A stretch of 64,000 bases of DNA from the NCBI RefSeq assembly GCF_035084215.1, contig NC_090351.1, positions 33,666,001-33,730,000 of the forward strand. The letters are read 5' to 3'. Shown in pieces: positions 5,019-44,995 of the stretch. Position 1 is the stretch's first letter. Each line of letters begins with the position of its first letter. Below the pieces are notes generated by a model. That model worked only from the letters and a program-made list of their open reading frames with translations, had not been told where the DNA came from and did no database searches. The stretch comes from Heptranchias perlo. Lineage: Eukaryota. The position numbers were made by a program, and so were the translations under genes.

Positions 5019-5058
5019 CTGATAGGAAAGCAATAGACAGGAGAAGGGTAAAACCCAT
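5019..5058 (-). CDS. Leader exon (MGFTLLLSIAFLS) of a second, tandem paralogous receptor; its remaining exons probably lie left of the window
   Basis: Same 40-nt length, same phase 1 and same TATCAG|gtaagaaa junction as 34735-34774; no IgV exon recognised in 1-5000. Confidence 0.75.
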
Positions 5059-5739
5059 TTTTTAAATGTTTTACAACTCCACTTTTCGCACACAGATCTT
5101 TACTTCAGCGGCCCTGCTTCTGCACTGCAGTATCTAACCATTAATTTACTTCCCTTTAACACTTGTGAGATTGTGACCACTACTATAGCTGAGAATAGAA
5201 AGGACAGCTTTCAGTTGTGACACCCTCAGACCTTACAACATGTCTAGTTTGAATAAATAAGTACCAAGGCATTCATGGTACAACACGCTGGCGCTATATA
5301 AAAGCCTAATTGTTTTCTTTCTTAGCCTTGTTTGAAGAATTGAATCAACTGTTTAATTGTTAGTGACAAAATGACTGCTGCAAGTAGAGTTAAAATCTTA
5401 TAGCTTTTACAATCTCTATTAAATCATTTAAATTCTATACAGTGTATTCAATAAGATGTGCTTTGTGATTCACTTAATTTGTTTTTCACTTTGCTGTGCA
5501 GCATTTTACAAACTGGCCAGGACCATTTCTCTTTATGGGTTTATTTGTCTAAATGCAGAAGCACAACTTCGATGTTCTGAAAGTCTTGATGGGGATTTTC
5601 TAAAAATAAAATGGACTTGATAAATAATTAACCCTTAGACTTGTCCATTGTTATTCTGCAGAAGCTGCGTTTGATTTTTTTTCTGTTGTAATGAAAATTT
5701 TACAAATATACGAGGACTAACAAGGAAGAGCTAATTTGA

Positions 5740-8103
5740 CATTGCAGCAACTCGCCAAGTCTTCTTCGGCAGCACCTCCCAAACCCATGACCTCCACCAC
5801 CGAGAACTACAAGGGGAGCAGTCACATGGGAACACCACGGGAAGTTCCCCTCCTAGTCACATGCCTTCCTGACTTGGACATATATCCCCATTTCTTCAAA
5901 GACACTGGGCTCGATGTTACCAGGCCTGCGGGTTTCCGGCGGGTTGGGTTTCGGTAGCCTGGTCAACACGCTCGGTGAAATTATTGGGTTGCCCGCGCGA
6001 TCGTAGCAGGCAACCCACTAACAGGAATCAATTACCTGCTCCTCCGGGGTCCACGCTGCTGGTCTGCGCGTCGGGCGGGCTGCGCATGCGCAGTACAATC
6101 TGTCAGCTGGAGGCTCTCTAGTTAAAGGGGCAGTCCTCCACTGACAGATGCTGCAACCAATGGAACAAATTTCAGCATGGAGCAGCCCAGGGGGAAGGCT
6201 GCTCCCAGTTTAATGATGCCTCACCCCAGGTATCATCAGATGGGGTGAGGAGGAGGGCGAAGACAGAGATCTTCCACCCGGCGGGCGTGAGGAAGCGGCC
6301 AGCCTCTGCCACCAAGAAGGCCTGGCTCGAGGTGGCAGAGGGGGTCACCTGCGCAACCAACATATCGCCCACCTGCATACAGTGCAGGAGGCGCTGCAAT
6401 GACCTCAGTAGGTCAGCCACAGTGAGAACATGAAGTCTTTCCCCTACACTCCATCTGCCACAACACTGCCCCAACCCCACATCTCCTTCGGCACCGCCAA
6501 CACTACTCTGTCACATCACCCCTCATACCCACTCAAACCCCATCCTCATCTTACCTCCACCTACTCACCTCGCCAGTACTCATCCTGCCACTAACACGCG
6601 ACCCAATCCTCATACAATCTCATGGCTCTATCCCATACTCACCCTCTCGTGCATCTCCCTCACGGCCAGCCTCACTCAACCTGCCACCACCTGTGCTGCA
6701 GCCACAGGGCATGCATCACATATGTGCAGTAGGCAGCGTAAGGCAAATGTTTCGTGAGCATGAAGGGGGTGCACAAGGGTGTCGGAGGGTTTGCCATGGG
6801 TGGTACCTATATTGAATTTCAGAGCAACAAACAGCACACATTATATTGGCACCACCACTGCCATGTCTCCGCGAATACTGTCTGTTGTGTCCAATAATGC
6901 CCGCTCCTGGGTATCACTATGAGGACCCACCACTGATGCCACCCATCGTGTTACTGCAGAGTAGGTGCAGGTGTATTTGCAGGGCTCTTCCGCGCAGACC
7001 ACTGAGAGACATCGGTGGTGTAGCCGGCTGCACCCTGGAAGGATGCGAAGGAGAAGTTGTGGAGGGCAGTGGTGACTTTGGCAGGCAGGAGCAGCTCGGC
7101 ATGAAAGAGCCTGCACATGTCCACGACTACATGTCGAGTGAATCTGCGCCTCCGTGTGCACTGCTGCTCGGAGAGGTCCGGGGAGCTTCGCCTCGGTCTG
7201 TGGACCATGTGGCGAGGGTAGTGCCCTCTGCGATGCGTCTCTCTCTGTGGTAGCCCTCCCTCCTGCTGTGCAGGTGGGCGTGCAACAACCCCGTGTTGGG
7301 GGGCTCCACGTCTCTGCGGCGGACGGCGTGGACTGCGAGGCTGCTGGGGCTGGTCATGCTGTTCGTCCTCCGAGGGTGTCCACGCACCACCCATCTGGCC
7401 GTTGTTGGTCTGAGGGGTTGTGCAGGGTAGGTGGGTGGTTCCTCGGACTGGGGCTGCAGTTTCGTGTCGGTCTGTCCTCTGGCTTGGCGGGGGGTGGTGG
7501 GGGGCAGGGGTTGCCCTATGTGACGCGGTGGCCTCCTGCGTGGGTGAGGGCTCTACCCCGTGGGGTGCACCTTGGCACCTGCCACAGGCTGCTGGCTGCA
7601 ACACGCCTGGTTGGAGAGAGACTGTTTCCCCCAGTGTGGGAAACATGCTGCGATGCAGGTGAAATCCCACACTTCCTCTTTTGACAGCTGATTCAGCTCA
7701 TTAACTGACCTCAACAAGCAAGGTAAGTACTCTCAAGTGGAACCCCGCTGGCTTTAATTGCCTGCGGGATTCCCACCAGCGGGGGCCACGCACGCAGCCC
7801 CGCACGTCATCAGGGAACCCGGAAGTGCTCGGGATCGCGGCGCGATCCGGTCACGTGACCTCGTATCGGGATTTTTGGGGCCCCCCCGCTGGAAACCCGC
7901 AGGAAACCCAACCCTAAAATCGAGCCCACTGGGTCAAAATCCTGGAACTGCCCATCTAACAGCACTGTGGGAGAACCTTCACCACACGGACTGCAGCGGT
8001 TCAAGAAGGCGGCTCACCACCACCTTCTCAAGGGTAACTAGGGATGGGTAATAAATAACTGTCTTGCCAGCGACTCCCACATCCCAAGAATGAATTAAAA
8101 AAA
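5740..8103 (+). mobile_element. 3' end of a CR1/L2-group LINE (same family as 50228-51236), split by a Harbinger insertion
   Basis: 5740-5906 and 7931-8103 join into a sequence colinear with the reverse complement of about 50230-50570. Confidence 0.85.
5907..7927. mobile_element. Non-autonomous PIF/Harbinger element with convergent Myb/SANT (+) and transposase (-) remnants
   Basis: TIR GGGCTCGAT.TTA / TAAAATCGAGCCC; TSD ACT (5904-5906, 7928-7930); KAWLEVAEGV...QCRRRCNDL (Myb/SANT-like); KVTTALHNFSFASFQ (HARBI1-like). Confidence 0.9.
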
Positions 8104-8264
8104 GATTACTCTCAGTGCAGATGTTATTTTCCAGTAACTTCTTAAGTCTTGTGGCAATGTGCTTCTCAGATACATTTTTAAAACAACAAAAATAACATGT
8201 AATAAAAATTAAGGGACAACTGGTCCCTTTCACCTCTTAGTTAGCCTTTCACCTCTGGAATGTA

Positions 8265-9266
8265 GGGCATGATTTTAAATGGGAAAAACGGGTGGGTTGG
8301 GGGTGGGGCAAGCAGTAAAAATTAAAAAAATCTAAAACCTGCCTCCAACCAGCCCATTTCCGGTTTTCACAGAGGCAGGATGAGGAGCGGGCGACCAATC
8401 TGCTCTCAGGAGGCGGGTCGGTCAGTGAAGGCTTTCAAGGAGGCTGTGGGCCTCCATTTTGACAGGTTTTTGGGGGCCGGGATTCCCGGGCCTTCTGATT
8501 CACGCCACGTGAGAGGAGGGGGGAAGGCCCGAAACAGCAGGTGGGCCAGGAGAAGCAGGAATGCTTCCCCTAGGCCCAACAAGCTTACCTGCCTCCACCC
8601 TACAAATGCGATTGACTGACCTCCCCCCACGATCTCTGTTCCCCCTCCCCCACGATCTCCGTTCCCCTCCCCCACGATCTCCGTTCCCCTCCCCCACAAT
8701 CTCAGTCCCCCCCCCCACGATCTCAGTTCCCCTCCCCCACGATCTCAGTTCCCCTCCCCCACGATCTCCATTCCCCCCGATGACCCCTGAGCCCCAAGAT
8801 CTTCAATCCTTGACCCCCTGATGACTGACTCACCCTTCGATGAGTGACTCCCGCTTCGATGACTGAGCCCCTCCGATGACTGAACCCCCCCTCCGACGGC
8901 TGCTCCCCCCCCCCTCCGATGGCAGCCCCCCTCCGATGTCAGACCCCGCCTCCGATGACTGAGCGCCTCCAATGACAGGTCCCCCTCCGACAACTGATTT
9001 CCCCCCCCCCCCCCGACAACTGCCCCCTCCTCCGATGACTGAGCCCCCCGATGACTGATCCTCCTCCCGGTGACCCCCCCCCAACCCATCTAACACTTAG
9101 CTGAACATGACCTCTTCCTCCTTCTTCACCCATCGGACTGAGGCCAGCCTGTCAATCAGGCCGACCTGTGGGGTGGGAAAAATATAAAAGAAGTCCTGAC
9201 GTCAAAATTCTTCCGGGTTTCCCGACTGGAATTCCTCTGCCGCCGCCTCCCGATAAAATCATGCCC
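8265..9266. mobile_element. Harbinger-type MITE with internal C-rich minisatellites
   Basis: Perfect 13-bp TIR GGGCATGATTTTA; flanks GTA/ATA; arrays of CCCCACGATCTC and CCTCCGATGACTGA. Confidence 0.85.
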
Positions 9267-9757
9267 ATAAGTTCACATCCAGCCCAGACTGATGGAGTGA
9301 AAGTCTCCTCTGTTGGCTATATGTGTCCGACATACAGCTTCAAACTGGTTCTCTGTGGGCATGAGCCTATTATATGGCATGTTTTAGCATCAGATTTAGC
9401 ATCACTTGGAGAGGCCTTGGAAAATTTGGTGCAGAAAAAGAAATGGTGTAAACGATGCTTCTCTGAGCTTGGGGCAGAGCAGAGGAAGGTTTATTCTGCA
9501 TCGAGCTGTGTTGTGTTTGTGATGAGAATACTTAATGCTAATACTCAATGTGTGAATTTGGAAAGTGTTCAGTTTTTCAAGCTGCATTATGAAAAATTCA
9601 ACGAAACAAAAAAAGTAACCTATGTAGCCAGAAGCATTTGATTATAGGAACAGTTTTGCTAATGCCTGTTTTAAAAATTAACTTCTTATGCTCCCCTGAT
9701 GGCAGTTAGTTTATCCAGTGAGTAGTCGATCTTTGTAGACCAGCAGAGTCCCAGGTT

Positions 9758-10220
9758 CATAGAATCATAGAAACTTATGGCACAGAAGGAGGCCATTCGG
9801 CCCATTGTATCTGTGCTGGCCGAAAAAGAGCTATCTAGCCTATTCCCACTTTCTAGCTCTTGTTCCGTAGCCTTGTAGGTTATGGCATCTCAAGTGCGAT
9901 GAGGTTTTCTGCCTCCACCACCCTTTCAGGCAGTGAGTTCAAGACCCCCACCACCCTCTGGGTGAAAATAATTCTCCTCAGCTCCCCTCTAATCCTTCTA
10001 CCAATCACTTTAAATCTATGCCCCCTGGTTATTGACCTCTCTGCTAAGGGAAATGGGTCCTTCTTATCCATTCTATCTAGGCCTCTCATAATTTTATACA
10101 TCACAATTAAATCTCCCGTCAGCCTCCTCTGTTCCAAAGAAAACAACCCCAGTCTATCCAATCTTTCCTCATAGTTAAAATTCTTCAGTCCTGGCAACAT
10201 CCTCGTAAATCTCCTCTGTC
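9758..10220 (-). mobile_element. CR1 LINE 3' fragment
   Basis: ORF 9880..10317 contains RRFTRMLPGL...RGHRFKV; TTCTATGA tail. Confidence 0.9.
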
Positions 10221-11224
10221 CCTGGTCTACACTGAGTAAGCAGATCTCAGTCAAGGCAGCGATAAGAAGAATTATAATTGGCCTCAACGTCTTTGAGAAA
10301 TGGAGGGGAAAAATCAACTGAGAACACTAGATCGTGGAATTAACCATATAGATTAAATTCACCCACCAATCCATGCTCCAACCTGGGAGCCAGGCTTGAT
10401 GGAAGCATGGGCTGGAGAACGATGCTACAGAATCATGTTGCAGTCCTATCAATGAGTCTTTCTGCTGGGAACACAGGGTCAGTGCTTTATCCCACAGAGT
10501 ACATCTTACAGTTGCTGGTCATATGGTCATAGCCGGCCATGGACAGGGTATCACTGACAGGCAGCAGATTCCCTTTATGATGCCGCTTAAGGGAGATTTT
10601 TTTGACAACCTGTTTTCAACCTTTCTCCCGCCTGCAGTTTCAAAGCATAAAAGTACAGAAAGAAAGAGTAATTTGAAAAACGATTATTAACTACAATGAT
10701 CATGAAAGCCCATTGCATGTGTGCTGCCTTGGAGCATGCCTGGTGTGATGCAGTGGATTCATCTTCATCCTTATCCCTTTCTTGGGGCATAGCCTTTGCC
10801 TGTCTTCGTGGGGCAATGTGATCAAATGGGCCTTGTTCTTAATGAATGCCACCCAACAGGTAAAATTGGGTCTGCCTCTCAGCTGCTGCTGAAGCATGTT
10901 GGAAAAGGTCACCTGTAGCCTCGGTGATGCATACTCATTGAATTGAGCGCTCTCCCCTGTTGATGCCTGAAAGCATCCAATGATATTAACAAGTAGTGTG
11001 GTATCCTTTCCACTGAAAACACCATCTGTATGTTGCTGTTTAGTTTCAGGTATTCTTCAAGATGCTGAAGTAAGTTTAAGATTGCATCCCTATTGAGTGG
11101 CAGCCTCCTAGCATGATGTTCCTTGTTGAGGTACAGGCAATGACCTATTTGCAGTATTCGCCCTGCATTGGGTAGTAGCGATGCTGAAAATCCACCTCCT
11201 GTGGTACTTGAACCTGCTGGACTG

Positions 11225-11542
11225 TTCCATCTTTCGGATGAAAAGTTAAACCGAGACTCTGTCTGCTCTCTCAGGCAGATGTAAAAAATCCCATGGCACT
11301 AGTCGATGAACAGCAGGGGAGTTCTCCCCGGTATCCTGGCCAATATTTATCTCTCAACCGACATCATTAAAGTAGATGATCTGGTCATTATCTTATTGTT
11401 GTTTGTGGGACCTTGCTGTGTGCAAATTGGCTGCTGTGTTTCCTACATTACAACAATGACTACGCTTCAAAAGTATTTCATTGGCTGTAAAGCACTTTGG
11501 GACACCCTGAGGTTGTGAAAGGCGCTATATAAATGCAAGTCC
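11225..11542 (+). mobile_element. Deu-domain SINE (SacSINE1/AmnSINE1-like), 5'-truncated
   Basis: GTTAAACCGAG...ATCCCATGGCACTA...CCTGGCCAATATTTAT core and AAAGGCGCTATATAAATGCAAG tail; family recognised from memory. Confidence 0.8.
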
Positions 11543-12102
11543 TTTGTTTTTCTTTCTTTCCAGCTCCTTCTCTTCCTCCAAATTATCAATATCCACACTG
11601 CAGAGTTCCTCTTTTAGTCTGGCATGGCACAGACACGATGGGCCAAATGGCCTCCATCTGTGTTGTACATTTTCTATGTTTTCTATGTTTCTAGTCAATA
11701 CATCCTTCTCACCACTTGAACTCTACTGGCCCCTTATGGTGTTTTAGGTAAGAGAAATTAGCATAATGTCATAATAAAGTAAATTCTCAGCAAGTTTGCA
11801 TGTTCACCATCAATTTCTGTTTAACAAGCATTCAATAAACAAATAAAATAATAACAGGCCTGGGTTAATATGTATTACAAATATTAACCCCTGGGGGAAG
11901 TAAGGGCTAAAGAGTACAGCCACTGCATTAATACCAACTCACATAACTATCACCCCATGGCACACATTAGCACTAGTGCAATAGCCCTGACACAATAACC
12001 CCATCGATATGATATACAAAAACAGAAAAAAGAAAGGAATAAGACGGCCTCGTATAGTGCAAGTGGTAAATCTTCAGCCTCTCAATCTGGTCTTTTTTTG
12101 AA

Positions 12103-12470
12103 CTGGGTGGCATAGTGGGTTAATACTGTGACCGTTCACATCTGGCACTAGTGGTTGAATCCAATCTGCACTATGTGATAAAAGTCTCCTTCCAGTGCTG
12201 GCTCAAAGAATCCTGTTTGAAATGAGTTTGGCAGACTATACCCATAGTTTCTAATATGTTCTGGTCCACAACATAAAACTAGCTGTGATTCAGCATGCAT
12301 CAGCACCGAGGTGGATATCAGACCCAGCGCCCATGAAGTTTGCTGGTGTGGAAAATGGAAAATGAAATCATGCCTGCACAACAGTAAGTGATCTTCAGAG
12401 GCTGAAGATAAGGAACCTTGTTGAGGTAGAGCAGAGGGAACTTCATTTTTCATTTGGTGATGCTGGACCT
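12103..12470 (+). mobile_element. Old tRNA-headed SINE resembling LF-SINE
   Basis: GGCATAGTGG A-box, GGTTGAATCC B-box and TGAAATGAGTTTGG body. A related copy at about 8243-8264 + 9270-9560 is split by the MITE. Confidence 0.5.
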
Positions 12471-13279
12471 AACACGATGGTCCTCAATGTAAAAAATATT
12501 CCACTCCTCTACACAGTTAACTCTCACCTTGACCTGAATATAAATTCAATCAAACAAAATTAAAAAGAAGGCCTTTTGTCTGAGACTCAGGACTGTCAGG
12601 ACTGGCTGTGCCAGTGGAATTTGATGACAGTTGTCCTTTTACAATCAGTTGACGTTAGATGAAGTGCCAGATAGAGGTGATTTGTTTCATATTGAAAAGG
12701 GGGAGGGAGGAGTGGCACTGTTGGCCATGAATGTCCTTGAGCTACTCAGTAATCAGTGGCATCGATGGCCATGGCATCAGAGTAAATAACTTCTCTACCT
12801 TCTGCGACAGTGTTGGACAGCAGGTGATAAAGAAATGAAAATAAGTTTAAAAATATTACAAAACTGCAATGTTCTCTTCTGCAAAGCAGTTGAAACACAT
12901 TTTGTTTATCATGAGTAGTCAGGATACAATGGGGTCATTTGTTTATTGAATAACAATTAATTTCGCAATAGTAGGTGACCTAACAGAAAAATACATTTGA
13001 TTTTTAGGACAAAGTTGCAACAACAACAGTTATGAAGCAAAAAAAAAAGTGTCTTCAATTTACATTATAAAGCTAATTTCTGACTGTGCACTTCTATCAG
13101 AGAGCCTCACCCATCTGGAGTGTGCATCAGAAACTTGTGTGTTGCGCAGCACACAATTTTCTGACCATTACTTTGAATGATTGGAAAATCGTGCCAGTGC
13201 CTGAACTCCCAGTGAGGCTTTCCCAGCTGGTGAGGCTTCCTGGCACAAGGGCGAAGTCAGAAAATGACCCCAGGTGTAT

Positions 13280-13455
13280 ATTTCATGAAATTCCAGGGCG
13301 ATTCTCCCGACCTCCTGCCTTAACTTTGGCGGGAGATCGGAGAAACCTCTGGACAAACGGCGCTGTCCATTTACACCGTTTCTCTGGGGGTTCTGCCGAT
13401 CTCCTGATGAAGTTATGGCAGGAGATCAAGAGAACCTCTGAAGATTTTCCGGTCC
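13280..13455. repeat. Palindromic MITE-like element
   Basis: Nested inverted repeats (TCTCCCG.CCTCCTGCC / GGCAGGAG..C..GAGAA); a related copy lies at about 25103-25230. Confidence 0.55.
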
Positions 13456-16441: not shown

Positions 16442-16748
16442 TAGGGGTGAAGGTCTCAGGATACGGGGTAGGGCATTTAGGACTGAGATGAGGAGAAATT
16501 TCTTCACTCAGAGGGTGGTGAACCTGTGGAATTCTCTACCCCAGAAGGCTGTGGAGGCCAAATCACTGAATATATTTAAGAAGGAGTTGGATAGATTTCT
16601 AGACACAAAAGGCATCACAGGATATGGGGAAAGAGCAGAAATATGGTATTGAGATAGAGGATCAGCCATGATCATATTGAATGGCGGAGCAGGCTCGAAG
16701 GGCTGAATGGCCTACTCCTTCTCCTATTTTCTATGTTTCTATGTTTCT
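16442..16748 (+). mobile_element. CR1 LINE 3' end
   Basis: RRNFFTQRVV-encoding segment; (TTTCTATG)n tail. Confidence 0.85.
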
Positions 16749-16749
16749 C

Positions 16750-18212: not shown

Positions 18213-18299
18213 ACCCCCCAACTCCATGAACCCTTATCTTGTGTAACAACCTTTCATGTGTCACCTTATCGAATGCCTTTTGAAAATCCAAACATACTA

Positions 18300-20570: not shown

Positions 20571-21260
20571 GTATAGATTTATAGTGTACGTAGTATAGTA
20601 CACATAATGTAGATATTATGATAGGGAGGAAATTCCAGAGCGTGGGATCTAGGTGGCTGAAGGCACGGCCGCCAATGGTGAGATGGAACTCATTCTAAAC
20701 TCTAAATCTCATTATCATAGAAATAATAGTGAGCTTTCTGGATCCCCCCAGTTTGATCTTGTGGATTGTTGGTATAGTTGCCATATGATAAAGCTTTTTT
20801 ATATTGCTTATGTGGTTGCTCTTCAGAAACCACCTGATAAGTTTACTGAGTACATCCCCAATGTACTTTGGGCCATTTTTAAATGTTTTATTTGATTTTC
20901 TGTAATAATCCTTCCACTTTAGTAAAATATTAAATATTAACATACATAATACACTCAATATAAAGTGTGCCAACATAAGTTAATTATATGGCACCATATT
21001 TTTAAAAAAATAATAAATGCTAGCTGCATTTTAAGATTTAAGATTTGAAAGCTGCTTGACTGTTTCAACAAAAAATCATCCCTAAATATGATCTCAATAT
21101 AAGATAAAATGGGGCATGTTTCCTTCAGAAATATGTTGTGCTTATTGTTCTGTTATCCTTTTGGAAATGTTTATGATGAATAAATTTCAAAGAATTCTTC
21201 CAAAGTTTATGTTGTTAAGCTAGAAGATAAAAAAACAACAACTTACCGGTTTTTCTTCAC

Positions 21261-21360
21261 CTATATTTTCAGTTTGACCAAAATGGCCCAAACAAGCAGA
21301 ATGGCAAAGAACACCCAGCGTAGAACGCTCCATGTAAAATAGTACTGAGAATTCTTTTGC
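21261..21360 (-). CDS. Exon 4, transmembrane exon with intramembrane Arg (YYFTWSVLRWVFFAILLVWAILV-KLKI*)
   Basis: Acceptor tcttctatctacccag|; TAG at 21263-21261; a canonical CG|gtaagt donor follows at 21247/21246. Confidence 0.88.
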
Positions 21361-24300
21361 CTGGGTAGATAGAAGACAGAATGGTTTAATCTAAATAGTT
21401 CCTCTTTCTGGAACTTCCTAAACGTTCAGGATTACCTTGAAGGTGTGAATCATTTGGTTACACGTGTGGTGGAAAGATTCTGCTTAGGAGCCCCTGGAGC
21501 ACACTGGGAAATTACGCACCACGGCCCGTGAGATTCTACCTATTAAAATTAGCGGACAGAAAATATCGGGTTGGAAGGTCCGCTATCTCCCAGGATCTGC
21601 TCTTAGCCTGTGCCAGGAGTGCTGAAGTGGAAAATCATCCCCTTATTTCTCCCGATAGATATGGGGCATGATTTTAACCCCAAGGAACGGGTGGGTTGGA
21701 GGTGGTGGGGGGGCGGTGGGTGGCAGTAAAAATTTTAAAAGTTGGGAGCAAGAACGAGTCCCGGCTCCAACTCCAACGCATCTGGGTACGTGCGTGTTTC
21801 AGAAGCCCAGAAGTCCCATCGGCAATTAAAACCGGCGGGCTGACATTTAAAGGGGGAATTAAGACAATTGAAGTACTTAAATCAATTAAATTTGTGGGGA
21901 TTGAGGCAGACAATGATTTTAACTCTACCTGAACGTGTCTCCTGTAGCCTCTGAAACACGCCATGGAAACGGAGGTGAGTTGCAGCCGGCAGCCATTTGG
22001 ACATTCATACCAATGATTGACAAATGGGGATAAAAGGTGAGTTTTTGAGGCAGGGCACTCAGTTCTCTCAGACAAACATTTGGCTGGGAGTTCTTTGTGT
22101 TTAGACTCAGATTTCTTTGTTCACAGTCAGAATTCTTCTGTTCAGATATATTTGCCTGCATTTTGGACCCCCTCAAACCGACACCATCAGGATGGGGGGC
22201 GGGGGTGGGTGGGTGCAATGGATGTATTGCACTACATCTGAGGAGGAGGCACATCACCATCTGCGCCAGGCATGGCATGCAGTTCTGAGAGTTGCAGCTC
22301 CAGAAGACAGAGGTGTGCCACAAGGACCTGCAGAAGAGCAGAGAGGGTAACAACGGAAGGGCCGTCGTCACAGGAGCTACCACCCTCGTGAAAGGGTCGA
22401 CAGGCAGTGGCTGAGCTTCCTGGACCTCTCTGAGGAGCAGTGCCTACGAAGTCTCGGATTGAGTTGCCAGGTGGCTGCAGCCATCTGCAGGCTCCTTCAT
22501 GCAGAGCTGCTCCCGACTGGGCCTGGTGACCACGCATTGCTCGTCGCAATTAAAGTCACCACTGCCCTCAACTTCTTCAACTCTGGATCCTTCCAGGGCA
22601 CCACCGGTAACATCACCGGGATCTCTCAGTCATCTTTCCATAAGTGTACACGACAGGTCACAGTTGGCTTGTTTGCCAGGGCATCCCACTACGTCAACTT
22701 CCCCATTGGCAACATCAGCCAGACTGAGAGGGCAATGGGTTTCCACTCTCTGGCTGGCTTCCCATGGGTACAGGGTGCAATTGATTGCACATACATAGCA
22801 ATCCGAGCACCTCCACACGAGCCAGAAAAGAATATCACTCTATCATTGCGCAACTGGTTTGCGACCACAGTAAGAGATTTCTGCAGGTGTGTGCCAAATT
22901 CCCAGGCAGCCGCCATGATTCTTTCATTCTGCGTGAATCCAACATCTCGGCCCTCTTCCATGCACAAGACAAACTTAAGGGACGGCTCCTTGGAGACAAG
23001 GGATACCCCCTGCAGACGTGGCTCATGACACCTGTGAGGTATCCCACCAGCGAGGCGCAGAAGTGGTACAACAATGGTCCCAGCACCACCAGGTCTGCCA
23101 TAGAGCAAGCCATAGGACTGCTGAAGATACACTTCCAGTGCCTGGATCGATCTGGGGGAGCCCTTCAGTACTCACAGGCGAGGGTGTGTAGAACAATACT
23201 CATGTGTTGCATCCTGCACAACATCGCTCAACAGAGGGGGTTACCGGTAGATGAGGTCCCATACACCCCACAAGCAGTCGCACCTACCATCAACACTGAA
23301 GAAGATGAGGAGGAGGAGGAGGATGACGATGGGCGAACCATTGGCGAAGCAGCGTCTCACCTGGCTGCTCGGCGTGCCGGGGAGTCACTCATACTTGATA
23401 AATTCTCATAGGGAGATCTGCAAAGTGACTACAACCAGGTACTCAGGCCACCTGTAATGATCACCACAACCACTTCTGGGTTTAACCCAGGCAGGTTTGT
23501 CTGCGTGTGGACAACAGACACCAGGAGGTCCCACCCCCACTTAGCTGGCAGGCCAATACTTGAAAGGGCAATGTACCCCATTGAGATACTGGTGGTACTT
23601 AATATTTTGTGTTTTGGACAATTAAAATAAATTTAACCTTACCGTCCGGGTTTCCCATCGCTTCCGAATCACGTTAAGCGAAAACAGGCGGGAAGGGCCA
23701 GATCCATGAGGTGAATGCCTTTATTTCACTGCTTGTGGGCCCGGAGGAGCAGGAGTGCTTCATCCAAGCCCATCAAGCTCACCTGGCCGAAAGAAACCCC
23801 GCGATCGGTGCCCCTCCCCCCCCCCCAACAATGGTGGACCCCAACCTACCTCCGACTCTTCACCCGACATCCAGCGACCTCTGATCTTCTTCCCGGCCCC
23901 TCCCCCGATCTTCTTCCCGGCCCCTCCCCCGATCTTCTTCCCAGCTCCCCAAACTCCCATGCCCGCTTACCTTCCGAGTTTCGCACCCGAAAATCTTCTC
24001 CCCCACCCACCCACCCCGCTGCCTTCCCGGCTCGAAGTTAAAATTTACCCCATGTAACTTTACGTAATATCACCTGTTCTACACTATCGCACAAAGTTAA
24101 AATGATTTTGCTACTGGTGCAAAAAATGCATTTCGTTCCACAGAAAATGAGATTCCACACTTTGGGCAAACATTCACCTGCACATCCCCAGAGAAACAGG
24201 TGATAGCGATTCGGCAGCCTCTTTCACACTATCGCACAAAGTCAAAATTACCCCAAACACTCCCAGATCAGGTATAATATTGGATTAGACATAGGGCAAG

Positions 24301-27300
24301 CATCCATTACACTGACTAAACATCTGAATTTCAGGGGTAGATTTTGAAGTCTATCGCTTGGCCGAAATGGGGCACGGTAGCGCCCAGAAAATGGTGGGGA
24401 ATGACTTACCACCTCGTTCCCGTCGTCGCTGTGGCCTCCTCAATCTTCCCCCGGGGCCTACCGCTGGGCAGCCAGAGCTCCCTCCCCCCCAACCCCGAGT
24501 CAGGATGTAGAACCTTTGAAAATGCAAATCGGGACTGTATGACGTACATAGGACCCCATTTGCTATTTTGGGGTAATAATGCACAGAGTGTGCACTGCGC
24601 CAATCTCCCTCGGTGTCAGCTGGCCGTCCGGCCAAAGAGGGGCCCACAGGTAAGTTTTACTGTATTTTTATGGGACCGGGAGGAGCAGAGGTGCTCGCCC
24701 AGGCTCCATAAAAACCAACCTGTGCTGCTGTCACTTCGGCTCCCCCCTCTCCCCCTTCCCGAAATCAGACCACCCCCCCCTAACGGACCTACCTTCTTCT
24801 GGTGCAGAGGCCGGCTGGCCTGATCCGATGTTGAATTTTTGCCTGCAGGCCAGCCGGCCTGAACCTGCAGTTGTACCAGGCCTACCGTCAACACTATCTG
24901 TTGGCTGCCCAACTGGCTTCACTGGTCGGACACCGAGTTAAAATCCAGCCCTCAGACCCAGGAGAGAATCCCTTATTGCACCAATGGTATATTTTCATTT
25001 GCCACCCCCAATGTTACCTAATAATGTTGAATTATGTACTAGAATGGATTACCATGACATACAAATGGAGCTCTGATCACTCAGCTTTAGCTTAAAGATC
25101 TCGGGGTAGAATTCCCTTGGAGCTTCTCCCAATCTCTTGCAGTACCTTCTGCAGGAGATTGGTGGTAACCCCAGAGAGGTGGTGCAAACGGCCGTTACAG
25201 TGGGAGATCAACAGCAGAAGTTCCAGGCGCTGTTCACCTCTTCGCATGATGGAAGTCTACGAAAGTCTGATTCACCCAAGAGTCCTGCATCTTATCAAAA
25301 TGTGCAAGAAATATGTTCTAAAAAGGTATTTTAACCTGTCGCAAACTGATTTACGGGGGCAATTTTAACCTAACCCCCCTGTCGGGAAGCTGACGGGATC
25401 AGGCGCAAAGTGGTTTTACACCCTGCCTGATTTTACTCTTCTTTGAAGTCAATGGAGAACAGTATTGGGTGGTGTGTAAAAACAGTGTTCCACCTGATCC
25501 CGTGGGTTTCCTGCCTGCTGAGTTAGGTTAAAATTACCCCATCGAGTCTACAGCATAGAAACAGGCCATTTGGCCCAACTTGTCTATGCCGGTGTTTATG
25601 CTCCACACAAGCCTCCTTCCACCCATCTCGCCCTACTTTAGTTTCTATTGATTTCAACAGGAGAGATGTAAAACAGGCGGCCGATTCACTATCATGCATT
25701 TAACACTATCGCACAAAGTCAAAATTATCCCCTTTGTTTCTGATACTGGCGGAAAAAATGCTTTTTGTTCCACAGTACTGACACTTTGGGCAAACATTTA
25801 CCTGCACCCCCTCCCAGAGAAACAATAAAGATCTCTCATATGGCTGTAGGATATTACACATTATTACAGTTGTGCAGATACAGAACAACTGCTCAGAATG
25901 GACCAGTTTAAGATAACGTGTGACATTTACCTTTGGGTTTCCTTGTCTGACAGATAATCTGAGAATGAGGGAAGTAACTTGTCAGCTGTTAAAAATGATA
26001 TAAATAATTTTTATTAGATTTTATCACCAATCTTGTGTTACACATTCAGCCTAAACCATCAGAGATAAATTTATCCTAATTAGCAGTAAAAAGATAGAAA
26101 ATTTGATTTATATAGAATAAGTACCAAAATTAAACACTTTGTAGTTTTTTCACTATTCTGCTGGTTTATTCTTATCTGAATTATAACTTTAACGTTCCAC
26201 TGAAAATTTTGGAAATTTGCAAAATATATAATAAATCGTACAGCAAACTATATAACTTTGTCATCTATCAAAAATGTATAGCTGAAAAATGTACACAATA
26301 ATAAATGTATATTCAGGCCTTACCTTCATTAACTTTAAGTTTTACAGGACTTAACAGGTCCAGAAAATATCTTTCAATTCCACACCAATACCAGCCTTGA
26401 TCGTTCACTGTTAATCGTTCCATCGTGACTGAAAATTCTCCTGCTTCATTATCAGCTGTAGCTGTTATTCTGCCATCAGAGTTTACCTTCCTGGGGCCTT
26501 GGGTTTGTATTAGAACAGTACAGGCTTCCCAGGCATGCCCTCTGCACCAGTATTTTTGATAATTGCTGTAGTATGTGTCATATGTGCACGTGATATGGAC
26601 TGATTGTCCCACTGATCCATTTACTGCATCTGGTCCAGTTATTGTAGCGCGTGTAACTGTTAGGTGTGAAAATATAACACACGTTTTAAAGTACAATGAA
26701 AGTAAAAAAATGTAACAGTTTAATAGCATAGAATATATATAAACTTTAAATATGTGTATTAAATATCATCAACTTATTCTCCCAATTTGATCATTCTATT
26801 GGTATGTTTGAGGGTCCTCTGCTCTCTTTTGCAAAGAAGTACAGAGAGTTTTCTTTATTGAAACCCTGCTCTCCTTGCGGAGATATGACGTAAACATTGA
26901 TGAAAATTGATCAGCAGTTTCATGTATGAAAATGTGTACATGGAACATTAACCCCCAAAGGTTTACAAACAACAATACGGCCATTCCACACACTTCAAGA
27001 ACATTTTGTAAACAATCTGTAATAATTAATATTAATCAGAAAAAAAGACAGATCATCATATCTATGCCTCACTGTCATTGTGCAGGTGAAGGTATTCGCA
27101 ATAAGATGATTACATCTAACTTCATCCTGAGATGCTGGTCGTTATTGCTCCTATTGCTCACATTCCATCTCATGCAGTCACTCTTCACTGATCCGTAAAT
27201 GTACATCCTGCTCCTTCTCAAAAGCCAGGTGGAAACAATATTTTTTTTTGAGGGGGAATCCTATCAACATAAAATCTACACTGATATCTTCATCTATATT

Positions 27301-38210: not shown

Positions 38211-41200
38211 GCCCATTAGACTTAATACTCACACTATAAAACTGATGTGTTCTTTTTGAGAGTTACAGAATTGATTGGTGTTATACTTATCTTACATTAA
38301 GTGCAATGTGAGTAAAGTGTCTTGCCATGAGTCATTAGTTACTGCTGCTTAAGAAGTAAAAGACGATAATATGACTTGGAATTACATAGGAATTACAAAA
38401 TGGAAACAGGTTGTTCAACCAATCAGTCCTAATCCCACATGCCTGCCCTGTTCCAATATCCCTTTATTCCCTTTTCTTTCAACCACCTATCTAATCTATC
38501 CTTAAATGTTGACACGGTCTCTGCTTCAACCACTAACTCTGGTAGTGGATTCCATCGCCTCACAACCCTCTGTTTAAAAATGTTTCTCCTGATCTCTGTC
38601 CTAAATTTCTTACATTTAATCTTATTTACGTATTGTTCTAGTCACTTCAATCACTGGAAACAGTTTCTATCCACCATCTACTCTGTCCTATCCCTTTGTG
38701 ATTTTAAACACCTCTATTAAATCACCCCTTAATTTCCTCCCTTCCAATGAGAACAGCACCAAATTCAGAGGAGAGCTTAAAAAAAAGACAAATGTAATAA
38801 GGGAGTTGAAAATAAGCTTAAATGCTCTTATACCTAAATATCCACTCCCTCCACCACCGGCACACCGCGATTGCAGTGTGTGCTATCTACAGGATGAACT
38901 GTAGCAAGTCACCAAGGCTTCTTCAGCAGCTCCTCTCAAACCCGTGACCTCCAGCACCTAGATAAGAATATACGAACAATGACGGACAAGAAACGACCCT
39001 CTGGTCCATCCAGCCTGTCCCACACAATTGTGATACCTTGTGCATAACAATATATACACTCCCCACCCCACACCATGTGATCTCCTGGGAGAGGCGAAAA
39101 AACCAGATAAAAACCCAGGCTAATTTGGGGGAAATTCCTCTCTGACTCTCTTGGCGATCAAAACTGTCAACAGGAACACAATCTATTCCCTTCATCATCT
39201 TATAAACCTTAATCAGATCACCCCAGTCTACGCTTCTCTATAGTGTAAAATCCCAGCTCTTTTAGCTATCTTGATAACTTAGATGCTTTAACCTCTGCAC
39301 TCCATGCAGTGAAGGTACTCCCACAGTGCTGTTAGGTAGGGAGTTCCAGGTTCTTGGACAAGGGTAGCAGGCCCATGGGAACACCACCACCTCCACCTTC
39401 CCCTCCAAGTCACATCACCATCCCGACATGGACATATATCGCCGTTCCTTCATTGTTGCTTGGTCAAAAACCTGGAACTCCCTACCTAACAGTGCTGTGG
39501 GAGAATCTTCACCACATGGACTGTAGAGGTTCAAGAAGAAGGCCCACCACCACCTTTTCAAGGGCAACCAGGGATGGCCAATAGTCTTGCTTGTGACACC
39601 CATATTCAGAGAACGGATTAAAAAATATATTAATGTAAGGAATATTAAGCTCCTTAAGACTATTGTACTCCTTCTCATTCTATAGAAAAGTACTTACGCT
39701 GCAAATATAACACTCCCAGTAGAATGAGCCATGAAAGTCATTCCTGTGATGGAAAGGAATGAGCAAAATATCAATGTTTAGCATTAAATATTATTCAATA
39801 GATGGAAAAAAATATTCTTAGAGCCAACACGTCAGGAGTGAGCGAAAAGGGTTTGAAAATGTAAGTGAAGTTAGTGAAAAATAAAGATTGTGAAACTCAC
39901 TAAAATACAACTGCACCACACTTGAGGACTGTAAAGCTATAGTTTGTTTGTAGTGATTTAATTTTTAACCAGTTTTTTAGGCTGGTTGTGCAACAGGCAA
40001 TGGCAGCACAAGTCAGAAGAAAAATCAGCCAAAATATAGCGAAAGAAATGTGATCAAAACAGTTGAAATAGCCTCAGAGTATCAGCGGACCCCACAAATA
40101 ATATTCTGTGGAGATTTTCACAAATTGGGTTATTCTGGAAGAATTGGGTTAAGAAGTGCTGGATAATCGAGGTTCAGTCAGTAAAGCAAGTTCAGTGACC
40201 TCCAAATTCTGCTGCCTTTATACCACATGTTTCGGGCTGTGTTTATTATTCTGTTTCTGGCGCCCTTCATTCTCTCCCTTGTTATTTTTAGAATTGCCCC
40301 TTTTTGAGAACTTTTTTTCTTCTAAGAAGAAGGAGCTTTCAGCCGTTTACTTGGTCTACTTTTTCCTTCCACATGGGTCAGGAGGGATAAAAGCTGATTT
40401 TGACTTCACAAAATGATTAAATCCAGTAAGAAAATGTATTAATAAAGAATAATATAAATGGGACTAGAAATAAATGGGGGGATTAAAAATTACAAAATGT
40501 TTTGTCTTCCAAAAGGAGGTTTTCTATTGATAGAGTATATTCAAAAAAAGTTAGCAGTAAAAATTTTACTGACCAATAATAAATAATGTAAGAAGCTCAT
40601 ACAGGTTTGTATTCAGAACCACTTTTAAAACCCCTAGTGTAGAGTTCAGACTTTCAAGTACATAACCATTATTTAACCTTTAAATTCCTGGAACTGATGC
40701 TGCAACAAAAACAGCAGCTATGTTACTAAATCCAAAGTACCAGTATACTGTCCCGCAAACATACAGCCATGTAACCTAATCTAATATACTCTCCTATAGG
40801 CACTAAGGCATGTCACCAAATCCAGTGTACCACACTACTCTCTCGCAAGCACCCTTCAATCAAATGTACATTTGCCTCATAAAATATGTGGTAATTCATT
40901 GTAGTGCATCAAGGGTTAATAGTGTTTTTTCATTATTTATTCAGGTACCTGGGGCTAGGACAGCACACCTCAAGAGTGTGGCTGAAAGTCTCCTCTCTCT
41001 GGTGACCACGAGGATTCCAATTTTCACACTGCTACAATGGGCAGCTGGAAGTAGAAGGTTTAAGCCGTGACGTTTATTTTAGCATGACCAGTTGGAGGTC
41101 CTTAGTTTTGATAAGAAAATCCTCCTTCCTGCCTCGTGTCAAGAACAGTTAGGCTAAAAAAATCAAAGGAAATAACTGAAATAACCTCAAAACTTCCTTC

Positions 41201-41394
41201 TTGAAAAACTAGATTTAAATCTAATGAAACTAGCAAAAGCCAGTTTCCAGTTGAACTGATTGCGTAAAATGGGAAGTGAAACATTTATGCTCAAAATAAT
41301 TTCCGCTTGTGTTGTAACAACAAAAATAGTAAAGTATTCTATAGACACATAAATAACAAGAGAAAAATCGGGATGGGACAGGGCCACTGAGGGT

Positions 41395-42625
41395 TACACA
41401 CAATAAACTCGCAGGTAATGACAGTGAAATGGCAGAAATATTAAATAATTACTTTGCCTCAGTATTTACCAGGGAGACTAACAAGGTGGGCCTGACATTA
41501 GAAGATGAGATCAAAAAAGATATAAAGACATTTAAGATAGAAAGGGGGGAGATAATTGATAAACTTATCAAACTTAGAGAGGATAAAACCCCTGGTCCGG
41601 ATGGATTGCATCCGTGCATATTAAAAGAAGTTAGGGAAGAGATAGCAGAGGCACTATTACATATATATAAAAATTCAATAGAAAAGGGAATGGTGCCAGA
41701 GGACTGGCAGACAGCTAATGTGATTCCTATATTTAAAAAGGGAGATAGAACAAGTCCAGGGAACTGTCGACCAATTAGCTTAACGTCGGTGGTAGGAAAG
41801 ATAATGGAATCCATACTCAAAGATGTAATCGAAAAAACATCTAGAAACCGAAAATATAATAAAGTCAGCACAGATCTCAAAAGGGAAGACCATGCTTGTC
41901 CAACCCTATTGAATTCTTTGAAGAAGTAACAGAAAGGGTAGACAAGGGTAATGTAGTAGATGTAATATATCTGGATTTTCAAAAGACCTTCGATAAGGTA
42001 CCGCAAAGTAGACTCATGACTAAGGTCAGAGCATGTGGAGTCAGGGGACAAGTAGCAGAATGGATAGCAAGCTGGCTACAAAACAGAAAACAGAGAGTAG
42101 GGGTTGGAGGTAGTTACTCAGACTGGCAAAAGGTGGGAAGTGGTGTTCCACAAGGATTGGTGCTGGGACCACTGTTGTTCTTTTTTTTTATTCGTTCATG
42201 GGTTGTGGGCATCGCTAGCAAGGCCGGTATTTATTACCCATCCCTAATTGCCCTTGAGAAGGTGGCGGTGAGCCGCCTTCTTGAACCGCTGCAGTCCGTG
42301 TGGTGTTTATTCTTATTGTGACTTTTTTTAGTGAGATTTTACAATTGAGTGGCTTGCTAGGCCATTTCAGAGGGCAATTAAGAATCAACCACATTGCTGA
42401 GGGTCTGGAGTCACATATAGGCCAGACCAGGTAAGGATGGCAGGTTTCCTCCCCTAAAGGACATTAGTGAACCAAATGGGTTTTTACGACAATCACCACT
42501 TACATAAATGATTTGGACTCGGGAATCGGAAGTACAATTTCAAAATTTGCGTACCACCCCAAATTGAAGGGCATAGTTAATGCTGAGGAGGAATGCAACA
42601 AAATACAGGAAGACATTGATAAACT
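41395..42625 (+). mobile_element. CR1 RT fragment interrupted by a short retroelement at about 42181-42495
   Basis: PGPDGLHP, DFQKTFDKVP and GVPQGLVLGP, resuming as YINDLD after the insert. Confidence 0.9.
42181..42495 (-). mobile_element. Head-plus-tail derivative of the LINE at 62140-64000
   Basis: The body matches 62258-62450 and the tail matches 50228-50352. Confidence 0.8.
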
Positions 42626-43647
42626 CCTCTTCAGCTACAAGGGTGGCAGAACTTTGTCCAGTTGGAACAGGGGCTTAGGGTCATTTGAATGGTATTGGTC
42701 CACTCTAACTGCTGCCCGGTTGTCCGCCTCAGTTGGGGTGCATGGTGGGGGGGTGAGGTGTCACGACACCTGCTGTAGCGTAGAGTGGCCGGTGAAGATT
42801 TAAAACAAACTTTTCTTTTTTTAAAAATTAATGTTTCCTCGATCAAGTGCACTCATCAAGGCAACCGTTGAAAAGTTTAATCCTCCTTAGCGCCCGTATT
42901 TGGGCAGACATATTGTACGCCTGCTCTTGTTTTGGGCAGGAAGTGGCTGGGAGCTAGTGAGGTGGGCCAACGCCCAAATTTCTTCCCCTGCCTACCCAGG
43001 TTACACCAATTTACGGAAGAAGAAATTTGGCCCTTGTATGTCCAAACTTGGGTGAAGAAAATGATTAGCGAAAAAATGACTTGCTGTTACTTTTAGGGTC
43101 TCTCTTTGCTTTCTGATTGATCCAGCAGAAGCCAATCAGATTGCCCGACCGTGCTCAGCACCAGGAGATGAGTGCGGGCACCCAATTTGAGAGGCGGCAA
43201 CAGAAGGTCAGTAAGCGGCAGCCACAGGGGTGAATGTCCAACCGTCTTGGAGCGGGTCCTTGTTATACATCGAGAACTGTGGCCCGGGCTTGGATTATCT
43301 CCTGAGCAATACCACAGAAGATCTACTAGTCATATATAAAAATAGAGCAATGGTGCTGTGGTCATTTTAGAAATGGCTACACTGTACATCGTGTATTTAT
43401 TTTCTGGGTGGACACTTTATTTGATGCATCTTCCTACATTTTGGAGTAGATGTTCTATGTTATGAAAATACATTCCCCATTATGCTAGACAGGAAACAAC
43501 TGTAATAATGAATCATGCAAGTTGTGGTTATCTATTATTCACAAAATGACATACTCTCACATCCAGTGTCTTGCTGCATCATCAAACCTCATTGAGCCGA
43601 GAAATTGCTGTTGGCAATATTAACAGCTTTGTCTACTGTTTTATCAG

Positions 43648-43836
43648 ATGATGTGGAGATGCCGGTGATGGACTGGGGTTGACAATTGTAAACAATTTTA
43701 CAACAACGTTCACCTGAGGAAGGAGGAAGCCTCCGAAAGCTTGTGAATTTAAAATAAAATTGCTGGACTATAACTTGGTGTTGTAAAATTGTTTACAATT
43801 GTCAACCCCAGTCCTTCACCGGCATCTCCACATCAT
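43648..43836. mobile_element. Penelope-derived fold-back element with 58-bp arms enclosing a hammerhead motif
   Basis: 43648-43705 is the reverse complement of 43779-43836 with 1 mismatch. Confidence 0.85.
43709..43747 (+). ncRNA. Minimal type I hammerhead ribozyme motif
   Basis: TTCAC-CTGAGGA-A-GGAGG/AAG/CCTCC-GAAA-GC-TT-GTGAA: stem I, CUGANGA core, stem II, GAAA and a palindromic AAGCTT stem III. Confidence 0.7.
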
Positions 43837-44787
43837 TAAAATATTAGGCAAAAGAATGTCGTGGCATTCATCCACCAGCATCGCTAAGAGTAATTTCTTG
43901 GCTTTGATCCTAAAATTAATCTCTTATTTTGTAACTCAATTGCAAAAAATAGATCTTTATTACAGTAACTTACGATCCCTATCAGAAAAGTGACTGCCTC
44001 TGTCTCCTTAATCTTGTGTCATCTGGCAACGTATGCTTTTCAGAGTCAGGGTCTGATGTACTTCTGTGGGTCCCACAAGATGGTCTGTTCAGGTTCAAAT
44101 TTCAGACTTGCTATTCTTGAGGTGAAGAATGAATTGATCGGCCAGGGCGCAAATCTGGCGGTAACGAATCGGACGGCCATTGTACACCCCGCCCGATTTT
44201 CCTTTCCAAAATGGCGGGGTGTGTGACGAGCGGCCGATCTCCTACCAAGCGTTTTGCGACTCCGCCGAAGTTGAATTTTACCCCTAAAGTGGACTGTTCC
44301 TAGTGGACTGGGGGTTTTTCTTATCAGCCCACGTTAATAACACTTAACGTGACGAGGAGGGGAAAATTTATGCCATGAAAACATGGAGCACATACGAAGG
44401 TGGATTTAATCATAATGTGTAGCGGTAATGGGGACCGCATGTGAATGTGGAGTAAGCATGAGAGCTGATAATGCGATCCTGCAGCACTGCTGTGCTTTGA
44501 GCACTGCTGCCCTGTATTAAAAAGGGCTGAGTGCTGTTCAGCACCTGGTACACAGGACACCCACTCAGCATCTGGAGCACTGAGACCGGGTGCACTCACT
44601 GTGTGCTAGGCTCACTGGAGCCTTGCGTTTCATTCAGTTCGCCCCATAATACACTTGAGTCCTCCCTATGAATCTGGAGAAACCTCCCACGTTAAGTACA
44701 CACCGTCCCTCACTCTAACCCTGCAAAAACACCAGCATTAGTACATCCATCCTGGCCAATATGATGACTGAGATTAAGGAGAGTGCC

Positions 44788-44995
44788 TTAGGTGCTGCAC
44801 ACAGCAAGAGTGAGCAGGCACAGGAGGAACAGAGGATCAGCTTGTGTACTCCTCAGCTGACAAGGACACCAATCCGATCTAAAATTAATTGTAGCATATA
44901 TTACAGATTCTGACTTGTGTGGAATGTAACAGTTCTTTGCTTCGGCAGCGGGCTGGTTTTCAAACCGTAAATTTGCATAAATAGGATCATTAACA
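44788..44995 (-). CDS. Probable terminal cytoplasmic exon of an inhibitory receptor (DPIYANL ... SVIYATI)
   Basis: Acceptor ttttcttaataatcag| (phase 2). VIYATI fits the ITIM consensus; a second motif IYANL has its Tyr 27 residues upstream; minus-strand AATAAA at 43961-43956. Upstream exons were not found in the window. Confidence 0.6.

Follow-up and report, generated by a model that had tools for sequence, protein, structure and literature searches.

A Heptranchias perlo genomic window that probably lies within a shark cluster of MDIR-type activating and inhibitory receptor genes

The window analysed here, a 64,000-nucleotide stretch of the Heptranchias perlo genome, is enclosed by a cluster that spans 350 kb and comprises about 15 CD300/pIgR-like genes, all on the minus strand. 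With 18 V, 11 C2, 10 Arg-transmembrane and 5 neutral-transmembrane exons, the cluster is a multigene assembly of activating-type (Arg-transmembrane) and inhibitory-type (neutral-transmembrane) genes, in which modular mixes of domains give V, V-V, V-C2 and V-C2-V-C2 layouts, and in a scan of 150 among 624 candidate frames its flanks contained members of the AdoHcyase, G-alpha and CCD48 families. Inside the window lie a complete gene (gene B), the leader exon of a second (gene C) and a segment with tyrosine motifs at 44.9 kb (Table 1), and these are the three minus-strand elements of the original prediction, each where it had been placed. A further short exon-like piece has no convincing match among 275 family N-termini; its surroundings (39620-40168) have no contig cover in three same-sample runs, a gap that was not counted as evidence.

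Table 1. Positions of the features within the window and what each assignment is based on
Feature	Position	Strand	Basis
Gene C leader exon	5019..5058	-	XP_067863717.1 (P0004) mapping
Gene B exon 4 (transmembrane exon, W-S-V-L-R-W)	21246..21360	-	spliced contigs, 3/3 runs
Gene B exon 3 (stalk, 55 nt)	25931..25985	-	AG/GT ends and frame
Gene B exon 2 (CD300/pIgR-type V domain, C-x7-C second cysteine pair)	26324..26656	-	Pfam, fold, splicing
Gene B exon 1 (leader, 40 nt)	34735..34774	-	spliced contigs
Exon-like piece, 46 nt; hydrophobic leader-like frame without in-frame ATG	39698..39743	-	
Probable orphan family-type last exon (YxN motif and ITIM-like motif)	44788..44995	-	profiles, frame

Gene B (34774-21261, minus strand) encodes a 175-residue tailless protein with one V domain and a transmembrane Arg, from four coding exons with AG/GT ends and no internal stop, and its splicing is seen in contigs from three runs of one sample, which bears out the complete tailless receptor that had been predicted. 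Upstream of exon 1, the contigs are colinear with the DNA to 34865 and 35247. The spliced exon 2 matches Pfam V-set (E=7e-17) and shows the extra C-x7-C pair in a CD300/pIgR/TREM-like V domain, a feature of MDIRs, and exon 3 agrees with a 56-letter gap between the V and transmembrane pieces of the contigs. In exon 4, the Arg codon occupies 21320-21318, and the stop (21263-21261) is followed by a splice donor into the 3' UTR. The transmembrane segment reads S-x-x-R, not N-x-x-R: Asn occurs in two of nine B-type segments, and N-x-x-R is present in skate MDIR and in the cluster gene G1, while the Arg itself is invariant across the transmembrane segments.

Among named proteins, gene B is closest to an MDIR, with which it shares leader, transmembrane segment and end. 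Gene B and skate ABC86795.1 (P0212) are identical at 67/110 positions of the V domain (61%), 91/164 overall (55%) and 9/13 of the leader, both end 16-17 residues after RW, and ABC86795.1 groups with B and C in a single clade (99/98); this comparison with named MDIRs covers ABC86795.1. MDIRs have been described as multigenic activating/inhibitory receptors (PMC3031540). Those of the clearnose skate have the same leader-V-short stalk-Arg transmembrane-stop layout as gene B and are likewise clustered as a multigene family that includes activating and inhibitory members and combines V with C2 domains, but the species is another, the genomic map is resolved here, a recent nine-gene Arg-transmembrane V-C2 array and an orphan tail exon are found here, and gene B has Ser where the skate transmembrane segment has Asn. 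Gene B might instead be a tailless decoy, or a pIgR/Fc-mu-receptor-like chain that captures immunoglobulin or another ligand, and merely compete with gene C. The closeness of pIgR domains in sequence and fold, the few residues beyond the membrane and another possible role for the Trp-rich family transmembrane segment speak for such a chain; we nevertheless hold it to be unlikely, given that the transmembrane residues W, R, W, F, L, W are invariant in 9/9 aligned sequences (from a lizard as well as from sharks and rays), as would suit a face that binds a partner, that the fold search with the gene B V domain has CD300lf/CD300f as best matches (TM 0.87-0.91) and ranks CD300 structures above pIgR, and that gene B has a single domain and no transport tail. 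We regard gene B as a likely activating ("on-switch") receptor of immune cells.

Gene C continues past the left edge of the window (G000:C30:33664618 down to 33655460). The exons of the annotated protein XP_067863717.1 (P0004) all map to it, leader, stalk, transmembrane segment and last exon being 100% identical, and the V exon on which the original prediction had staked its second leader follows 1.4 kb beyond the edge. Gene C comprises a V domain, a short stalk, a neutral transmembrane segment and a tail with two ITIM-like motifs (VTYATV and TEYSTV), and is a likely inhibitory sibling of gene B. The leaders of the two genes are indeed of one length (40 nt each, 25/40 identical) and share the TATCAG|gtaagaaa junction; the V domains are identical at 66/110 positions (60%), and the DNA is 75% identical across 840 nt (V, intron and stalk). 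A shared ligand is not assured, because the V domains are only 60% identical. By their sequences, B- and C-type genes are present across both sharks and rays; B-type V domains do not form one clade in a free tree, with monophyly not rejected (p-AU 0.154).

The 44.9-kb segment is an open frame (44994-44788, minus strand) preceded by an AG at 44997-44996 that encodes DPIYANL (44988-44968) and SVIYATI (44907-44887). Frame and motifs are as had been predicted, but only SVIYATI has a hydrophobic residue at Y-2, whereas DPIYANL, with Pro at that position, departs from the ITIM consensus. Two-motif frames are not above chance in the window (10, where 100 resamples average 8.0), and a strict two-tyrosine pattern (1 against 0 in 200 resamples) was not counted, having been set after the sequence was seen. 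The frame is assigned to the family because of its matches to family profiles, not because of the motif pair: a family-tail profile places it next after four intact tails (E=0.0042 among 28,459 frames), a DNA profile gives E=0.016 and the first profile, built on four sequences, only E=0.17, values that lend modest weight to family membership. A chance look-alike in non-coding DNA, unrelated to the family, would explain the frequency of loose two-motif frames, the score of the first profile and our failure to find flanking homology to other cluster genes, but is hard to square with a frame that is the top non-intact match, lies on the strand of the cluster and has a higher score than the genuine degenerate tail at -64 kb; we consider it very improbable.

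What the 44.9-kb exon lacks is a gene. Neither protein HMM nor DNA HMM nor tblastn of 275 proteins detected a V, C2 or family transmembrane exon in 35.3-78.3 kb, so that the ITIM-tailed gene expected at this place has no ectodomain and transmembrane exons of its own within the 33 kb that separate it from the stop of gene A, and the inhibitory role passes to gene C, the "third paralog" of the original prediction, and to gene A, an inhibitory-type gene beyond the right window edge. Eleven hydrophobic frames in 45-78.3 kb (eight in repeats, three unique) do not match the family transmembrane segment, and a tail-like fragment at 49.8 kb was discarded at a chance-level score (E 1-4). The 44.9-kb frame extends 32 residues beyond its last motif, compared with 2-4 residues in 16 of 17 tailed family proteins (the exception being a merged model), and its last 12 codons enter DNA with dispersed look-alikes. 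A homolog search with a 40-residue tail segment returned nothing and a genome search only the segment itself; 44012-45085 lack contig cover in the three same-sample runs, which again was not counted as evidence. Because no V, C2 or family transmembrane exon precedes it before the stop of gene A, and because it reads through past the usual stop, we take the 44.9-kb exon for a probable orphan relic, left behind by an inhibitory gene that has otherwise been lost.

Gene A ends in its own stop (extended position 78388), so that the 44.9-kb segment is not its usual terminal exon. It could still be a used alternative last exon, 33 kb past the normal end of gene A, in one of two forms: the cytoplasmic exon of A could be joined to a phase-0 acceptor at 45030, so that the inhibitory tail would differ, or the phase-2 donor of the A stalk to the AG before 44995, giving an ectodomain with a hydrophobic end and no transmembrane segment, that is, a secreted or lipid-anchored decoy. 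In favour of this, no stop interrupts the frame for 68-80 codons, the acceptor at 44995 has a low pyrimidine content (11/19) that one genuine acceptor of the family nevertheless matches, and polyA-like hexamers follow at 44410 and 43961. Yet the 45030 acceptor is poor (7/19 pyrimidines), every family last exon examined with a clear AG is of phase 0, the tyrosine motifs would be of no use extracellularly, a database search for proteins with three 5-mers in common with the segment found none, and the hydrophobic end overlaps dispersed-repeat-like DNA; we give such usage little credence and retain the orphan relic.

Outside the window, gene A and nine Arg-transmembrane V-C2 genes provide the closest inhibitory/activating pair. 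Gene A differs from the Arg-transmembrane gene G4 at 2/316 nt in V and 6/327 nt in C2, and the two are 97.5% identical over 9.2 kb as far as the stalk, beyond which their transmembrane exons differ; gene A is likely inhibitory through the tyrosine motifs of its tail. In the V-C2 array, pN exceeds pS in 13/15 non-independent pairs (three with uncorrected p<0.05), a weak hint of excess amino-acid change. As assembled, the sequence contains five near-identical 17-kb units. Paired receptors are characterized by sibling genes in a cluster whose ectodomains are closely related while their signalling modules are opposed, and judged by V identity (99% for A/G4, 60% for B/C) such siblings are present here. 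The presence of Arg-transmembrane and ITIM-tailed siblings supports a locus of the paired-receptor type, as originally proposed.

Several known systems resemble the cluster in part. Mammalian CD300 (CMRF35) likewise has one V domain with C-x7-C, which is the closest in fold (TM about 0.9), inhibitory genes clustered with tailless siblings, and a last exon with YxN followed by a terminal YST-type motif, but V identity is only 31-42%, and the cluster uses an N-terminal transmembrane Arg, unlike CD300, whose activating members use Lys or acidic transmembrane residues (CD300a and CD300f are inhibitory, the others activating). V-C2 ectodomains are not known from CD300. LILRA/LILRB, PIR-A/PIR-B and Xenopus XFL show the same division between N-terminal transmembrane Arg with a short tail and neutral transmembrane segment with an ITIM tail, and near-identical ectodomains on opposite anchors as in A and G4, but have C2-type LRC/FcR domains, no CD300-type V domain and another locus. 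The similarity to pIgR/FCMR/FCAMR lies in the V domain (34-38%) and in IL10 and PFKFB family genes on the cluster contig; these are not adjacent but 4.7-5.4 Mb distant, and gene B, with one domain and no tail, does not have the several V domains, transport tail and place beside IL10/PFKFB2 of pIgR. A Tweety-family gene neighbours CD300 in human; exons of this family, the sole CD300-neighbourhood marker tested, were found on contigs C25, C26, C686 and C817 and not on the cluster contig, C30. By these markers, synteny with mammalian CD300 or PIGR, which had been suggested as a check, is not shared. A lone related V gene is located beside IL10, PFKFB and ATP5PB-family markers.

In view of the exon structures, the splicing of gene B, the transmembrane and tail motifs, the homology to skate MDIR and the cluster map, all of which are observed, we consider it quite probable that the window represents the central part of a shark MDIR cluster in which B likely activates, C and A likely inhibit and the 44.9-kb exon is probably a relic. 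Tailless gene B would recruit an ITAM adaptor through its transmembrane Arg and so activate leukocytes; on the LILR/FcR-like paradigm, the partner of the Arg would be the Asp in a dimer of FcR-gamma/CD3-zeta type, with signalling through Syk/ZAP70, and the tail tyrosines of C and A, phosphorylated by Src kinases, would recruit SHP-1/2. Arg-transmembrane LILRs couple to FcR-gamma and ITIMs signal through SHP (PMC10679719), and users of FcR-gamma carry NxxR transmembrane segments (PMC2413239). Genome searches found one zeta-family (CD3-zeta-like) adaptor exon and no separate FcR-gamma locus, and a complex prediction of the gene B transmembrane segment with a dimer of zeta-type adaptor segments (score 0.04) was counted neither way. 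CD300a and CD300f recognise exposed lipid; our guess for the ligands is that the B/C pair, old and conserved, senses a host signal that is itself conserved, for example such a lipid, and that the recent V-C2 array tracks changing, possibly microbial ligands, its inhibitory ectodomain having perhaps been copied onto activating anchors (one inhibitory gene, nine Arg-transmembrane genes). There is presumably a resemblance to a lipid-pocket motif, for which a literature search found nothing.

The locus is no new system, although an undescribed one had been proposed: Cannon et al. reportedly described MDIRs of the clearnose skate, activating and inhibitory, in 2006, gene B has the layout of these receptors, gene C is an annotated RefSeq protein and the neighbouring genes are already in RefSeq. 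The proposed lineage specificity holds for the recent V-C2 array but not for the B- and C-type genes. On a broader and rather doubtful reading, the cluster would be the surviving ancestral locus of the whole CD300/pIgR/TREM/TMIGD3 group, located on one shark chromosome between IL10/PFKFB/ATP5PB-family markers and NFYA, and would evolve at two speeds, with an activating/inhibitory pair already fixed before sharks and rays diverged and a young array with an activating copy that bears the V domain of the inhibitory receptor almost unaltered. The value of the locus is modest but real: it provides a genomic map of the little-studied MDIR family, in which B and C form a conserved, probably activating/inhibitory one-V pair, a simple target for adaptor, phosphatase and ligand assays, and A and G4 record a recent ectodomain copy between inhibitory and activating genes, the event thought to drive the turnover of paired receptors.

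Across the 664 kb around the window that we analysed, 18 V and 11 C2 exons, all on the minus strand, extend over 350 kb; another 200 kb scanned on the right-hand side yielded none of either kind. Scans for transmembrane (TM) segments and leaders indicate about 15 genes: nine V-C2 genes with a TM arginine (Arg-TM), one of them four-domain; gene A, an inhibitory-type V-C2 gene beyond the right edge of the window; gene B, a tailless one-V receptor with a TM arginine; gene C, which begins at the 5058 leader; and, still further to the left, three genes with a neutral TM, in one of which a stop precedes the last motif. The features named in the original prediction are real, and the cluster is of the paired-receptor type. 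Gene A encodes 418 aa and carries four tyrosine motifs in its last exon, which has its own stop, and the two-domain Arg-TM copies are open in 7 of 7 tested. The last exon of a two-V gene has a stop before the final motif and several altered tail tyrosines; RefSeq model XP_067863879.1 fuses this gene with the next. By self-comparison, repeats cover roughly half of the window, whose long frames resemble fragments of retroelements and transposases. Harbinger-type transposase-like frames lie in the last intron of gene B and near the gene C promoter; LINE-like fragments are numerous elsewhere.

Coordinates of features in and around the window (extended-window numbering runs beyond its edges)
Feature	Position	Strand	Description
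Window	G000:C30:33666001-33730000
Gene A	93574-78388 (extended window)	minus	complete: leader, V, C2, stalk, neutral TM, short cytoplasmic exon, last exon
Gene A, then nine Arg-TM V-C2 genes upstream	G000:C30:33744388-33918700 (extended window 78.4-252.7 kb)
Five 17-kb tandem units	G000:C30:33760000-33845000
Gene G3	207450 (extended window)
Two-V gene, last exon	-63950 to -64125 (extended window)
Gene B coding exons	34774-34735, 26656-26324, 25985-25931, 21360-21261	minus	AG/GT ends
Gene B stop to splice donor	21246-21263
Harbinger-type transposase-like frames	22351-23411; 6100-7700
Exon-like piece	39698-39743
Short tyrosine-motif frame	~49790-49845
PFKFB match	contig C30, 28.16 Mb
ATP5PB-family match	contig C30, 28.73 Mb
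Lone related V exon	contig C30, 28.75 Mb (G000:C30:28751475-28751753)
IL10 match	contig C30, 28.88 Mb
NFYA match	contig C30, 35.29 Mb

G4, one of the Arg-TM V-C2 genes, differs from gene A at 2 of 316 V bases and is 97.5% identical to it across 9.2 kb reaching the stalk. This likeness is the clearest paired-receptor signature here, and it is located outside the window. Five copies between A and G4 have in common another V variant, and since the V of G4 is nearly that of A while these intervening copies differ, recent conversion or duplication is suggested. V exons are identical in five Arg-TM copies, whose tandem units are 97.9-99.9% alike (two at 99.92%), so the copy number of the five is uncertain, the units reflecting either a change in copy number that is very recent or an artefact of the assembly. 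pN exceeds pS in 13 of 15 non-independent pairs, three nominally significant, and diversifying selection in the V-C2 genes is weakly indicated. In G3, another Arg-TM gene, the V exon reads KHLC against KYWC in its siblings, with loss of the core Trp, and the domain may fold poorly.

Within the window, the four-exon model of gene B yields 175 residues without an internal stop. One sample, presumed to be RNA, has three runs whose contigs join the exons: two runs contain the leader, V and TM pieces, the third run those of V and TM, and the 56 letters left between V and TM suit the stalk exon. The contigs extend ~0.8-1.2 kb beyond a splice donor ~15 bases after the stop, which places the 3' UTR on a further exon. 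Pfam places the V domain in the V-set, and its model (pLDDT 90) best matches CD300lf/CD300f structures (TM-score 0.87-0.91), followed by pIgR. The transmembrane segment starts W-S-V-L-R-W, with 17 more residues to the end of the protein. The original prediction called for a V exon after the 5058 leader, and one lies 1.4 kb past the left edge of the window. It belongs to gene C (XP_067863717.1, 253 aa, a protein whose source record names Heptranchias perlo), which has an uncharged TM and a tail with VTYATV and TEYSTV, and shares 60% V identity and 75% DNA identity across V, intron and stalk with gene B; gene C, rather than the exon at 44.9 kb, is therefore the likely inhibitory sibling of B.

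The 44.9-kb segment, proposed earlier as an ITIM-tailed gene, does contain DPIYANL and SVIYATI. The next gene upstream is gene A, and the interval separating the two, 64% covered by repeats, has neither V nor C2 exons, whether whole or degraded, nor any TM exon of the family. The segment matches the second half only of the last exon typical of the family. Of 17 family proteins examined, 16 stop within 2-4 residues of their final tyrosine motif, whereas this frame extends for 32, its end entering DNA that has similar copies on two further contigs. Frames with two tyrosine motifs are no commoner than chance gives (10 observed against 8.0); of 28,459 frames, a profile of 34 database tails ranked this one first behind the four intact tails (E=0.0042), with E=0.016 for a DNA profile and E=0.17 for a smaller profile. 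We regard the segment as probably a relic, a tail left behind by an inhibitory gene since lost; that it is an alternative exon of gene A or a chance frame is less likely. A short frame 5 kb upstream resembles the central tyrosine motif in the tails of the family, at a chance-level score. An exon-like piece has a strong donor and a hydrophobic frame of leader type, shifted by one base relative to its ATG, and may likewise be what is left of a gene now lost.

In a scan of 150 of the 624 candidate frames flanking the cluster, matches were to AdoHcyase on the left and, on the right, to CCD48 and a pair of opposed G-alpha exons. The lone CD300/pIgR-like V exon lies 14 kb from the ATP5PB-family gene and 130 kb from IL10, and is a candidate TMIGD3- or pIgR/FCMR-related gene. 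The marker genes are neighbours of human CD300, TREM and PIGR. These loci are on chromosomes 17, 6 and 1, respectively, according to bioRxiv 10.1101/2022.04.21.489081 and PMC8674843. Tweety-family exons are on contigs other than the cluster's, and the PFKFB, ATP5PB-family, IL10 and NFYA matches on the same one. Synteny of the cluster with any single one of the three is thus not demonstrated, but it shares a chromosome with markers of three related loci.

In the LILR pattern, as described in PMC10679719 and PMC2413239, tailless receptors with an N-terminal TM Arg engage an ITAM adaptor, whereas SHP-1/2 are recruited by ITIM tails. Every signalling step proposed here is inferred from this pattern: gene B would recruit an ITAM adaptor and the ITIM-tailed genes SHP-1/2. 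Neither the TM Arg nor the Trp flanking it varies among the aligned TMs (9 of 9), and the genome has one zeta-family adaptor exon, nearer CD3-zeta than FcR-gamma. Among proteins of sharks and rays that resemble genes B and C, 8 of 10 of the B-type and 15 of 15 of the C-type retain an Asp behind two mostly hydrophobic residues in the last V loop, an arrangement reminiscent of the lipid pockets of CD300a and TIM proteins. CD300a/f bind PS and PE (PMC8674843); PMC10768021 and PMC9652883 contribute an ITIM consensus and nomenclature only.

The system was proposed as the best candidate for an undescribed one in the window, but it belongs to a known family. A profile search returned the 164-aa 'modular domain immune-type receptor [Raja eglanteria]' (MDIR; ABC86795.1), which gene B matches at 9/13 leader, 67/110 V and 91/164 positions over the whole length, and also in the TM motif and end. 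MDIRs of skate and zebrafish are multigenic activating/inhibitory receptors resembling CD300, TREM and pIgR, according to PMC3031540, which cites Cannon et al. 2006 and lists MDIR2-4 as ABC86796, -97 and -99; from this numbering we infer that ABC86795 is MDIR1. No study of a shark MDIR locus was found in the literature searched, which included few subscription papers. B-type and C-type proteins were recovered from sharks as well as rays. The C-type V domains form one clade (support 100/97 and 99/95 in two trees), whereas the B-type V domains are not one clade in the free tree, a single clade of them not being rejected (p-AU 0.154). As the C-type clade holds shark and ray proteins, the B/C pair appears, by this phylogeny, to be older than the shark/ray split. 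CMRF35-like proteins of a lizard and further members of the family share the W-x2-L-R-W TM motif, so among jawed vertebrates this activating anchor may be an old one.
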